A DNA stretch of 64,000 nucleotides from Verrucomicrobiota bacterium (GTDB taxonomy: Bacteria; Verrucomicrobiota; Verrucomicrobiia; Opitutales; Opitutaceae): positions 9,458 to 73,457 of the forward strand of contig VHCI01000003.1 in NCBI GenBank assembly GCA_016871775.1. The letters run 5' to 3'. Below are positions 1 through 30,685 of this stretch, piece after piece. The notes beneath the pieces are model-generated. The model was given only the letters and a program-made list of their open reading frames with translations. It was not told the DNA's origin and searched no databases. Positions within the stretch are counted from its first letter, which is position 1, and each line of letters begins with the position of its first letter. The translations under genes were made by a program, and so were the position numbers.

Positions 1-149
1 GTTGGCGGTTGAGCAGCGGGGCGAGAGGGCGAGCAGATTTCGGTCGAGTAAGCCCGACGCCTACCCGGAGGGTAGGTGGAGCGGCTGACGCAGACCGAAG
101 GGTGCCGTCCAATCGTCTCGGGGCGACCCGTCCAACTGAATGAGTCCGG
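1..149. mobile_element. MITE-like structured repeat, copy A (left end lies outside the window)
   Basis: Colinear and nearly gap-free with 29751-29898 (shared GAGCAGCGGGG, TACCCGGAGGGTA, CTCGGGGCGACCCG, CAACTGAAT). Followed by CTGAG, the reverse complement of the CTCAG flank of copy B. Confidence 0.75.
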
Positions 150-206
150 CTGAGGCCGGCGCCGGGCGCGCCGCGCTCGGCGCTAGCCTTTGGGCAGGGA
201 ATCCGT

Positions 207-26766: not shown

Positions 26767-29637
26767 TCATTCGAGGTAACGGAAATCCGCGCTGGCGAAG
26801 AGCGCCTGCACCAGCTGCGCCCACGCCGCGGCCGCCGGCTCGCCCGGGGGCACGCTGGCGAGGAAACCGCGGGCCAGCGCCGCCTCGCCCGCCCGCGGGG
26901 GGCGGCCGAGGATGATGCGGCAGGCGCGGGCGAAACGCGCGTCGTCGTCCGCCGCGGGCGTCTCACGCGCGAGGCGTTTGGCCGCGTGCCGCGCCTGCTC
27001 GAGCACAAACGGGTGGTTCAGCAGGAACAGCGCCTGCGGGGCCACCGTGGTCGCGTGCCGGCGGGCGAGCGGCGCGTTGATGTCGGCGAAGTCGAAGGCC
27101 TCAAAGAGGTCCAGGCGGCGGTTGCGGAAGGCGGGCGTGTAGACGCTCCGCCGCAGGTCCGCGAAGACAAACCCGTACTCGCTCGCCGGCGGCGACGCGC
27201 CAAGGTTCGGCCCACCCACCGCGGCGTCGAGCCGGCCCGCCGCCAGCAGCAGCGCGTCGCGGACCTCCTCCGCCTCCAGGCGCCGCCGCCGCGCGTGCGA
27301 CAGGAGCCGGTTCGCGGGATCGCGCTCCGCCGCGCCCGGCGGCGGCGCGGACGACAACTGGTAGACGCGCGAGAGCACGATCTCCCGCACGAGGGCCTTC
27401 ACGGACCAGCCGTCCGCCGTGAACCGCAGCGCGAGGTGGTCGAGCAGTTCGGGGTGCGTCGGCGCCTCCCCGGTGGTGCCGAAGTTATCCACCGTCCGGA
27501 CCAAGCCCTCGCCGAGCAGCCAGGCCCAAACGCGGTTGACGGTCACGCGGGCGGTCAACGGGTGGCCTGGGTCCGCGATCCAGTCGGCCAGCTCGCGGCG
27601 CCCACTCTCGTCGGGCCGGAAGCCCGGGGCCTCGCCGCGGTGGGCGACGGCGAGGAAGCCGCGCGGCACCTTGGGCCCGAGGTTGCGCGCGATCCCGCGC
27701 ACCCGTATCTCCGTGTCGCCGATCTCCCCGGCCGCCTCGCGCACGCTCATCGCCAGCGGCCGCCGCGGGCCGGACGCGGCGAGCTGCTTCAGCTCCGCCT
27801 CGACTCGGCGCAGCTCAGCGGCCCGCTCCCCGGCGGCGGGGTCCGCGCGGTCCGGCGGGACGGCGGTCCCCTCCCCGCGCACGTCAAGCGGCAGCAGCTG
27901 CAGGGCATCCACGGTCACATGGCCGTCCGTGCCCTCGTTGGAGATCAGCACGTAGCCCTGGCCGTCCTTCTCGAAGCGAAACTGCCCCAGCGACAGCAGG
28001 CGCTCGCCGCCGGGCGGGGCCGTGCGCTGGTTGACGGTGACCGTAGCCTCGCCGTCCGCGTGGAGGATCGTGACGGGCACGTTAGAGGCGCGGTTAGCCG
28101 CGACGGTATAGGCGAGCCGCACCTCGTAGCGCCCGGACTGCGGCAACGCGGGCGTGAAGGAGACGGTCTTGGCGCCCTTGCCCTCGTTCTCGTCGGTGAG
28201 GTAGCCCTCGCCGACGTAGCCCGGGGTGGTGCGCGAGGCCTTCCAGGCGCCGACGACGCGGGCCTGGCCCTCGTCGAGGACGAGGCCGGGCAGCTCGGCG
28301 GCGGCGACGTTGCGGGGACCCTTCCCGGCGGGGGCGCGGGCGGCGGCGCGGAGCCGGGCGGCCTGCTTCTCGAGGGCGGCGAGCTTGGCCTCGTGTGCCG
28401 CGACGGCGTGTTCCTCGTCGGGCGGGAGCGGGAGCGCCGCGTCGACCCAGCGGGCCACGTTGTCGGTGTAGTTGTGCAGCGTGTGCGTCCCGCGGAGGAT
28501 GCCGGCGAGGCCGTAGTAATCGCGGAGCGTGACCGGGTCGAACTTGTGGTCGTGGCAGCGGGCGCAGCTGAGCGTCATCCCGAGGAAGGCCTTGCCGAGG
28601 GTGTCGAGCTGCTCGTCGATGATGTCCATCCGCAGCTGGTCCTTGTTCTGTTCCTCGTAATTGGTGGGGCCGAGGGTGAGGAAGGCGGTGGCGGTGAGGC
28701 GGCGGGCGCGCTCGGCGGAATCGGCCGAAGGGAGGAGGTCGCCGGCGAGCTGCTCGCGGATGAAAGCGTCGAAGGGCAGGTCGCGGTTGACCGCGTCGAT
28801 CACGTAGTCGCGGTAGCGCCAGGCGTCCTTGAACAGGAGGGTGCGGCCGCCGCCGCTGGACTCGGCGAAGCGGGCGACGTCGAGCCAGCGCCGGCCCCAG
28901 CGTTCGCCGAATTGCGGGGAGGCGAGCATCGCGTCGACTTGGCGGGCGAAGGCGGCCGGGCCGGGGTCGCGGAGGAAGGCGGCGGTCTGCTCTGGGGTGG
29001 GCGGGAGCCCGAGGAGGTCGAAGGAGGCGCGGCGGAGGAGGGCGGCGGGTTCGGCGTCGGGCGCGGGGGCGAGGTTCATTTCGGGCCAGCGGGCGGCGAT
29101 GAACCGGTCGATCGCGGTGCGGGCCCAGCCGGCGGGGTCGGGAGCCGGCACGGCGGCGGGAGCCGGCGGGACGAAGCTCCAGAAGCGGCGGCCCTCCTCG
29201 ATCGTCATCGCGCGGCGGGCCGGGGCGGCGCCGGGGACGGGCGCGGGCTCGTCGGGGGCGGGGGCGCCGCGGCGGACCCATTCCTCGAGCAGGGCGACCT
29301 CCTCGCGGGAGAGCGCGGAGCGGGGCGGCATCGCCTCGAACTCGAGCTTGGTGTAACGGATCGCCTTGATCAGCGGGCTCTCGTCGGGGCGGCCCGGGAG
29401 CACGGCGGGGCCGGAGTCGCCACCGACCAGCCAGCCGGCGGGGTGGTCGAGGCGGAGGCCGGCCTTGATCTTGTGTTCCGCGGCGTGGCACTCGAGGCAC
29501 CGGGCGGCCAGCAGCGGCCGGATGCTCTTCTCGAAGAATTCGATGCCAGCCGGGTCCGCGGCGGCGGCCGGCGCGGCGAAAGCAAGGCCCGCGCAGGCGC
29601 GCGCAAGGCGACGAAGGGTACCGGACAGGGGTGACAC
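26767..29637 (-). CDS. PSD1/planctomycete cytochrome C protein (PSCyt1+DUF1549+DUF1553) with internal beta-sandwich/CBM-like domain
   Basis: FFEKSIRPLLAARCLECH, GERWGRRWLDVARFAES, CARCHDHKFDP, HPELLDHLA. The start could be 29682. Confidence 0.9.
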   Translation of the reverse strand: MSPLSGTLRRLARACAGLAFAAPAAAADPAGIEFFEKSIRPLLAARCLECHAAEHKIKAGLRLDHPAGWLVGGDSGPAVLPGRPDESPLIKAIRYTKLEFEAMPPRSALSREEVALLEEWVRRGAPAPDEPAPVPGAAPARRAMTIEEGRRFWSFVPPAPAAVPAPDPAGWARTAIDRFIAARWPEMNLAPAPDAEPAALLRRASFDLLGLPPTPEQTAAFLRDPGPAAFARQVDAMLASPQFGERWGRRWLDVARFAESSGGGRTLLFKDAWRYRDYVIDAVNRDLPFDAFIREQLAGDLLPSADSAERARRLTATAFLTLGPTNYEEQNKDQLRMDIIDEQLDTLGKAFLGMTLSCARCHDHKFDPVTLRDYYGLAGILRGTHTLHNYTDNVARWVDAALPLPPDEEHAVAAHEAKLAALEKQAARLRAAARAPAGKGPRNVAAAELPGLVLDEGQARVVGAWKASRTTPGYVGEGYLTDENEGKGAKTVSFTPALPQSGRYEVRLAYTVAANRASNVPVTILHADGEATVTVNQRTAPPGGERLLSLGQFRFEKDGQGYVLISNEGTDGHVTVDALQLLPLDVRGEGTAVPPDRADPAAGERAAELRRVEAELKQLAASGPRRPLAMSVREAAGEIGDTEIRVRGIARNLGPKVPRGFLAVAHRGEAPGFRPDESGRRELADWIADPGHPLTARVTVNRVWAWLLGEGLVRTVDNFGTTGEAPTHPELLDHLALRFTADGWSVKALVREIVLSRVYQLSSAPPPGAAERDPANRLLSHARRRRLEAEEVRDALLLAAGRLDAAVGGPNLGASPPASEYGFVFADLRRSVYTPAFRNRRLDLFEAFDFADINAPLARRHATTVAPQALFLLNHPFVLEQARHAAKRLARETPAADDDARFARACRIILGRPPRAGEAALARGFLASVPPGEPAAAAWAQLVQALFASADFRYLE

Positions 29638-29737
29638 GGGAGGCGGGGTGGCCGCGGCGGGGAGCCGCGACCCCGGGAGCAAGCGTCAACCCCGCGCCGG
29701 AGGCAAGCGGGCAGATGGTCTCCCCCGGACGCCTCAG

Positions 29738-29898
29738 CCGGGACGATTCAATTGGAGGCGGAGCAGCGGGGTGAGATGGCGAGCGCATTTCAGCGGCGAA
29801 GGACCGAGGAATACCCGGAGGGTATTGCGACGGGAGAGAGCCACTGAAAGGTGCCGGCAGGTCACCTCGGGGCGACCCGATCAACTGAATCGTCCGGG
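29738..29898. mobile_element. MITE-like structured repeat, copy B (complete)
   Basis: Terminal inverted repeats CCGGGACGATTCAATTG / CAACTGAATCGTCCGGG (2 mismatches in 17). Flanked by direct repeat CTCAG (29733-37, 29899-903). No ORF inside. Confidence 0.8.
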
Positions 29899-29899
29899 C

Positions 29900-30685
29900 T
29901 CAGGGCTGCGCCTGCTTCTTCGGCGGCGGGTTGCGGCCCTGCGCGCTGACGACCTTCGGCTTGTCGATCTTCCGCGCCCCCGCCGGCAGCGCCGCCGCGT
30001 CGAACGCCGCCGCCGGGACGGGCGGCAATTCCCTCAGCAGCACCTGTTTCACGTAGGTGCGGTGCGGCACGCCGGCGTGAAGCTGGATCGCGATCAGCCC
30101 CTCGAGCGCCCGGTACTGGGCGTCGTGGTCAATGAACACCGAGGTCGTGCGGCCGTTGACGCGGTGCTCGAGCCGGTTGCCCCGGGCGATGACGGTGAAC
30201 TCATTCCATTGCGCCAGATCGGCCGTGACCCGCGGGCGCTCGCCCACCTGCCAGCGCTGGCCGGTGGGATCCATCACGACGTCGACCCCGTTGTAACCGA
30301 AGATGCCGCGCCCGCGCTCCTCGTAGGTCATCGCGGTGTGAACGTCCACCGGGTGCACGTCGCACTGGTAACCCTGGATCGTCCACGGCGTGACCTCCGG
30401 CAGGCGGCGGCTGCGGTACTGGATGCCCGAGTTGTTGTCGCCGACGACCTTCACCGTGGCCCGCAGCTCGAAGTCACGGACCGTTCCCTTCCAGATCAGG
30501 AACGAGTTGGTCCGCGGTTTGCCCGGCTCGCTCGTGCCGACGATCACGCCGTCCTCCACCCGCCACAGCCCGGGCTCCCCGTCCCAGCCGGTGAGGTCGC
30601 GGCCGTTGAAGAGCGGCGTGAAGCCCTCCGCGGCGAACGCGGGGGCGCAGAGGAGGACAAGGAGGGTGAGTCGGAGGGGGAGCAT
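29900..30685 (-). CDS. Exported DUF1080 (3-keto-disaccharide hydrolase-like) protein
   Basis: LFNGRDLTGWDG, NSGIQYRS, GYQCD, WNEFTVIARG, IAIQLH. Confidence 0.9.
   Translation of the reverse strand: MLPLRLTLLVLLCAPAFAAEGFTPLFNGRDLTGWDGEPGLWRVEDGVIVGTSEPGKPRTNSFLIWKGTVRDFELRATVKVVGDNNSGIQYRSRRLPEVTPWTIQGYQCDVHPVDVHTAMTYEERGRGIFGYNGVDVVMDPTGQRWQVGERPRVTADLAQWNEFTVIARGNRLEHRVNGRTTSVFIDHDAQYRALEGLIAIQLHAGVPHRTYVKQVLLRELPPVPAAAFDAAALPAGARKIDKPKVVSAQGRNPPPKKQAQP

Follow-up and report, generated by a model that had tools for sequence, protein, structure and literature searches.

Correia elements of Neisseria are bacterial MITEs. MITEAba12 of Acinetobacter is another (PMC6382973). The element described here resembles the bacterial MITEs derived from DDE insertion sequences (IS) in being short and free of any ORF, in having TIRs common to an autonomous IS and in being flanked by a target duplication; like them, it occurs in many copies that are mostly intergenic, polymorphic between strains and hairpin-forming. 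It differs from the Correia elements and MITEAba12 in its parent, which belongs to the IS1380 family, in its palindromic CTNAG target, by which most copies lie exactly on a stop codon, and in its host, the uncultured freshwater Opitutaceae. By description, bcr1 of the Bacillus cereus group is also alike, being a mobile repeat of ~155 bp that forms a hairpin and reportedly keeps its stem through compensating changes, but its host and sequence family are different.

Short targets of related design are known from several transposon families, namely CTAG or YTAR for IS5, TNA for IS1031, TWA for PIF/Harbinger-Tourist and TTAA for piggyBac, and a distant kinship of piggyBac with IS1380 has been proposed. 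The target of IS481 is NCTAGN (PMC2516522). The parent IS shares with IS481, IS5, IS1031, Harbinger and piggyBac a short, palindromic, duplicated target with an A/T-containing core that is rare in GC-rich DNA, whereas its transposase belongs to another family and its target is a pentamer with a free central base. The IS1380 family has been described with flanking repeats of 4-5 bp, those of IS1247 being 5 bp (PMC3281130). As in IS1380, IS1247 and ISEcp1, the parent IS encodes a single transposase scoring above the NF033539 cut-off, measures ~1.5 kb and has termini beginning with CC; under one reading it also has the 4/5-bp flanking repeats of the family. Unlike the family, its end variants lean to a 3-bp TNA duplication, and the transposase of one clade has its stop codon inside the terminal repeat. 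A literature search found no report of strict CTNAG target specificity in the IS1380 family and, within its partial coverage, no specific paper on MITEs derived from IS1380 that occupy CTNAG sites or stop codons.

The reading preferred here, to which we assign a probability of roughly 0.85, is that of a MITE, i.e. a short derivative that encodes no transposase of its own and is moved in trans by those of the IS1380 family in freshwater Opitutaceae, with CTNAG as its target and stop codons being hit mainly as a by-product of that target. Mobilisation in trans, purifying selection as a filter on insertions and an effect of the hairpin on mRNA are the parts that we infer.

Anatomy of the focal element

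The window, by which is meant the whole stretch of 64,000 nucleotides analysed (G000:C3:9458-73457), belongs to a 3.78-Mb assembly (G000) of 274 contigs and 69.6% GC. The focal repeat occupies window positions 29733-29903 and reads CTCAG-CCGGGACGATTCAATTG ... CAACTGAATCGTCCGGG-CTCAG (Table 1). The 17-bp TIRs and the CTCAG direct repeat noticed in a preliminary description of this DNA were confirmed to the base, the TIRs matching at 15 of 17 positions against a chance expectation of 0.07 such matches in the window. Inverted complementarity continues inward past the TIRs (70% over 50-nt arms). The TIRs are kept across copies, and the subfamily variants are present at both ends.

Table 1. Features of the focal insertion and of copy A (window coordinates unless a contig is named)
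Feature	Position	Strand	Remark
Left CTCAG, one copy of the duplicated target	29733-29737		Alternative reading: C, then TCA duplication, then G as the first base of the element
MITE body, 161 bp (163 bp with termini G...C), palindromic end to end, no ORF	29738-29898		
Left TIR, CCGGGACGATTCAATTG	29738-29754	+	14/17 against CCGGAACGATGCAGTTG, the TIR of full-length IS1380-type elements
Right TIR, reverse complement CCCGGACGATTCAGTTG	29882-29898	-	
Right CTCAG, second copy of the target	29899-29903		Contains the TGA stop of the minus-strand gene (TCA, 29900-29902)
Gene with the hit stop codon: 261-aa 3-keto-disaccharide hydrolase family protein, PF06439 (formerly DUF1080)	29900-30685	-	117 bits
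Next downstream gene on the same strand: PSCyt1/PSCyt2/PSD1 (DUF1549/DUF1553)	26767-29682	-	
Copy A, divergent subfamily, 72% identical	C3:9440-9610 (window 1-153)	+	Right CTGAG at 149-153

The duplicated TCA had been taken for the TGA stop of a DUF1080 gene, and it is indeed the stop of the PF06439 ORF. The downstream PSCyt1/PSCyt2/PSD1 gene starts ~50 nt past the other end of the element, and the spacer between this gene and the hit stop codon was only ~50 nt before the insertion. The sole listed ORF across the body (28094-29884, minus strand, 596 aa) was rejected as a spurious high-GC frame nested in the PSCyt1/PSCyt2/PSD1 gene. As regards copy A, the CTGAG noted after it is present; its left end is cut by the start of the window, 13-17 nt before which lies the left CTGAG, this being the TGA stop of the upstream plus-strand gene.

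Copies, empty sites and the parent IS

G000 contains ~16 copies or fragments of the element with 72-95% identity. A survey of the same genus found it in five of 24 genomes (21 copies in G012 and 1-5 each in G010, G011, G017 and G022), while it was absent from the other 19 searched. In a scan of the collection the element turned up in Opitutaceae/Opitutia MAGs of freshwater origin (Lakes Tanganyika, Mendota and Erken, the Tous reservoir and ponds); a match to Dongia deserti in the same scan was discarded as a 30-nt chance match. The genome-wide search for copies together with their flanks, proposed along with the preliminary description, thus yielded multiple copies with target duplications, the majority of them at stop codons.

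Empty sites were found in relatives as well as in G000 itself. On G012:C153 the flanks of the focal locus are joined by one CTCAG that holds the stop codon (TCA). G000, in turn, lacks the element at more than 10 loci that are filled in relatives, with a single CTCAG at L023, L056 and L060, CTCAA at L035 and CTAG at L027. Nearly all of these empty sites in G000 are already stop codons; the stops therefore pre-existed and were hit, rather than created, by the insertions.

Some loci show other arrangements. At G000:C158:4040-4379 (L007/L014), an 87-bp left part and ~77 bp of upstream flank are repeated in tandem 164 bp apart, i.e. one copy is accompanied by a partial duplicate upstream, and the left end is atypical (CTAAG-CCAACGGACCACCGATACGGG...). 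G000:C127:6500-6579 (L016) is an internally deleted derivative of ~75 bp with both termini kept; here too the right TCA serves as the stop of the adjacent gene. On G022:C159 (L042) the flanks of the focal locus, at positions matching window 29717 and 29898, are ~5 kb apart, so that something else lies between the PSD1-type gene and the PF06439 gene. Two shared insertions have flanks 100% identical between G000 and G012 (G000:C10:41438-42008 against G012:C43, L052; G000:C212 against G012:C289, L031), compared with 85-96% at other loci; such identity may reflect a recent exchange between lineages or mixed bins. A 2.9-kb contig labelled as a Rubrivivax sp. MAG (JAIYCN010000146.1, L067) carries a full copy with flanks that cluster with the Opitutaceae loci L033 and L079, and is probably misbinned. 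Many MITE copies in G010, G012 and G017 stand at contig ends. MITE/IS repeats break short-read assemblies, and the element provides an explanation for many contig breaks in freshwater Opitutaceae MAGs.

Neither a DDE_Tnp_1 nor an IS1380-type transposase was found in G000, the whole assembly having been searched, which extends to the entire genome assembly the earlier remark that the window holds no transposase. Unpaired TIRs and full-length IS were likewise sought in G000, where only MITE copies and the 75-bp deletion derivative were present. G000 is a 96%-complete MAG, and its repeat contigs may simply have been lost. The matching IS resides in related genomes. A search with DDE_Tnp_1 led to a remnant on G022:C163, in which the C-terminus of a transposase runs into an exact 17/17 TIR and the stop codon lies inside the TIR; G022 also carries MITEs with the TIR of this remnant. 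A family-wide search with the G022:C163 fragment then returned full-length elements of 1490-1496 bp with CTNAG on both sides (L123-L128, L134). They end in CCGG... termini, CCGGACTCATGCAGTTG in clade A and CCGGAACGATGCAGTTG in clade B, and each codes for a single ORF of 471-488 aa. In the same-genus genome G103, an entire contig (C17, 1495 bp, L135) is one such IS from terminus to terminus. The transposases score 248.4 and 218.2 bits against NCBIfam NF033539 (IS1380 family transposase; cut-off 180) and 143 and 129 bits against Pfam PF13701. MITEs of the CCGGACTCATGCAGTTG subfamily agree with the ends of the full-length IS at 17/17 positions, and the other subfamilies, with the focal element at 14/17, are clade-B-like. 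The look-out for an IS with matching ends thus ended at a ~1.49-kb IS1380-family IS. The element is an ordinary MITE with a neat target-site consequence, showing the TIRs, the target duplication, the multiple copies, the empty sites in relatives and the matching autonomous IS of a bacterial MITE; its initial classification as non-autonomous stands.

The termini are also found beyond this MITE. The pattern CTNAG-CCGG-N4-ATKC-N2-TTG recurs in other genera of the family, where it ends other short elements (108-203 bp) with different interiors. One of these, in G046 from another genus of the family (L106-L108, L100, L101), is a 203-bp MITE family with the same termini, CTNAG flanks and an unrelated interior, in which a single element bears two different tips, AACGATTCAG and AGGCATGCAG. 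Some subfamilies are chimeric (L077, L081, L055 and L071 against the G000 copies), a single interior being combined with two TIR tips (GGACGATTCAA or GACTCATGCAG) that are always matched at both ends, which suggests a switching of tips between the two transposase clades. Clade-A IS (L121, G022:C163 1226-1806; L125, 1486-2978) carry the TGA stop of the transposase inside the TIR (ACTCAT), so that both coding and transposase binding constrain the TIR tip. An IS4/IS5-like transposase fragment in G046 (L118) lies 180 bp from a TIR and was judged a chance neighbour; L102 and L104 had the look of unpaired TIRs but proved to be different short elements in which the second end is degenerate.

Target site and the coincidence with stop codons

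The flanking pentamer was analysed in 30 distinct copies that have CTNAG on either side. The N at its centre is the same at both ends in 26 of these and complementary in one, against an expected identity of 0.305 (p=2.6e-10); the pentamer is therefore a target duplication and not an extension of the inverted repeat. The CTNAG target put forward earlier is upheld. Since this target is palindromic, a duplication of 5 bp (CTNAG, with termini CC) and one of 3 bp (TNA, with termini GCC...GGC) both fit, and the preliminary description was right to count them as equal on that score. The end variants, in which an outer base departs from C/G and the inner base is kept (five outer deviations against one inner, p=0.11), slightly favour its 3-bp TCA version with TIRs 1 bp longer, while the precedent of IS1247 leans to 5 bp. 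One insertion at CTAG has a duplication of 4 bp (or 2 bp). Beyond the pentamer, no extended flank motif was found around the insertions other than a mild excess of C at -1 (0.49 against 0.30-0.34).

The relation to genes was assessed on 46 independent insertion loci with both flanks available, orthologous copies being merged, and with genes called (3033 in all, 90.7% coding) by a home-made model of codon bias that had been trained on this genome, instead of a standard annotator. C-TNA-G falls exactly on a called stop at 30 loci and overlaps one at five (with a one-base shift from a TAG stop in four cases and TTGAG in the fifth), while 11 loci are not at a stop. The CTNAG background of G000 comprises 3463 sites in CDS, 641 exactly at stop codons and 702 other non-coding ones; the 641 represent 22.5% of called stops and 48% of the 1343 non-coding CTNAG sites. 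The observed stop share (65-76%; 31/46) exceeds a null of 0.477 (p=0.0056) and one of 0.51 (p=0.018), as well as the null of 0.36 obtained from the relatives' loci, and its residual over the simple null is roughly 1.4-fold.

The stop-codon bias is real and largely a by-product of CTNAG specificity, which together with the loss of in-gene insertions predicts most of it. According to the mechanism proposed, the transposase would recognise termini of the form (G)CCGG-NNNN-AT(G/T)CA-NTTG and integrate at the palindromic C/TNA/G. The duplicated unit would be TNA (3 bp) with termini G...C, or CTNAG (5 bp) with termini CC; at CTAG sites it is 2 or 4 bp. Any TNA triplet reads as a stop on one of the two strands, and in a genome of 70% GC it is rare outside stop codons, so that about half of the CTNAG sites where insertion breaks no gene are stops. 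The duplication rebuilds the stop and leaves the gene product unchanged, and for that reason insertions at stops would persist, whereas those within genes would be purged. The residual excess may stem from stronger selection against insertions that fall in promoters or 5' leaders, and from genes left uncalled at the ends of contigs.

Alternatively, the bias could be built into the choice of target, with the transposase or a host factor sensing a marker of gene ends beyond CTNAG. The excess over the 0.477 null, and more strongly over that from the relatives' loci, speaks for such homing, as do the additional C just outside the pentamer and the four copies at one-base-offset TAG stops, which form a very rare background class (5 sites). 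Nevertheless, the excess is small and shrinks under modest corrections of the null, the 11 loci away from stops have to be accommodated, and six full-length IS copies with the same ends occupy CTNAG sites at which no convincing reading frame terminates. The weakness of the C at -1, these six IS copies and the balanced orientation of the element relative to the gene (20:15, no bias) all argue against built-in recognition of stops, and homing is considered improbable. The initial proposal that the element targets stop codons is not supported as it stands, given the high share of stops among non-coding CTNAG sites and the IS copies at CTNAG sites that are not convincing stops, while its companion claim that genes are spared is borne out by the majority of copies, in which the insertion falls on a stop codon and the gene stays whole.

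Hairpin, competing readings and significance

The whole element folds as one hairpin of -93.6 kcal/mol (z=-8.1), and the other strand reaches -82.6 kcal/mol (z about -8). RNAalifold on 46 distinct copies gave 43 consensus pairs, 13 of which are changed on both sides; these lie in the TIR tips and at some interior positions, including 43:138, 66:116 and 80:102. Covariation of the tips is the expected result of one transposase binding both ends, and that of the interior could represent selection for a single-strand fold or simply the inheritance of subfamilies. A scan of positions 29000-30600 with Rfam covariance models returned no match at E<=1, no intrinsic terminator (GC-rich stem with T-tract) was found at either end of the element, and a sigma-70 promoter scan found none at the element. 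The structured 3' UTR that the insertion was earlier suggested to add is plausible from the geometry of the locus and remains putative.

These data also bear on a reading in which the repeat is a domesticated structured RNA or DNA element, such as a stabiliser of mRNA 3' ends, an attenuator or a terminator, that is kept at gene ends and whose transposon-like ends are ancestral. The great stability of the hairpin agrees with it, as do the conservation of the interior between subfamilies and the pairs changed on both sides. However, the presence of the element is polymorphic between close relatives, with clean empty sites, and patchy in the genus, which indicates recent mobility and not a conserved function; moreover, there is no orientation preference, no T-tract follows the stem and no Rfam family is matched, while covariation in the terminal 17 bp is expected from shared transposase binding and the inheritance of subfamilies inflates the counts. 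Domestication hence appears doubtful, about as much so as homing. An IS5-family (IS1031/IS427-like) MITE was first expected, as the 3-bp TNA duplication and the CTAG variant resemble the targets of that family, but this is very improbable and was rejected, since the full-length elements found with these termini all code for transposases of the IS1380 family and no IS5 model is among the matches listed at E<=0.001. A REP/BIME-type extragenic palindrome, a class that is mobilised by a RAYT and lacks TIRs and target duplications, is disfavoured by the clear TIRs, the target duplication and the DDE parent IS.

With the element taken as a MITE of the IS1380 family, its significance lies first in the demonstration that a short palindromic target with a T-N-A core can give rise to an apparent preference for stop codons in a GC-rich genome with no need of a dedicated mechanism, and it serves as a cautionary example for inferring target bias from surviving copies. 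It also furnishes a strain-level presence/absence marker for lake metagenomes. A bolder view, which we regard as unlikely though worth stating, builds on the residual enrichment over the CTNAG null and on the compensated hairpin: the C/TNA/G target of this IS clade might act as a safe-haven address at the stop codons of GC-rich genomes, and its MITEs might have become tuned to gene ends as tolerated or useful 3' structures. If the residual enrichment were built into target choice, the system would exemplify a transposon directed to the ends of genes. For the uncultured freshwater Opitutaceae, the analysis provides a defined MITE/IS1380 pair.
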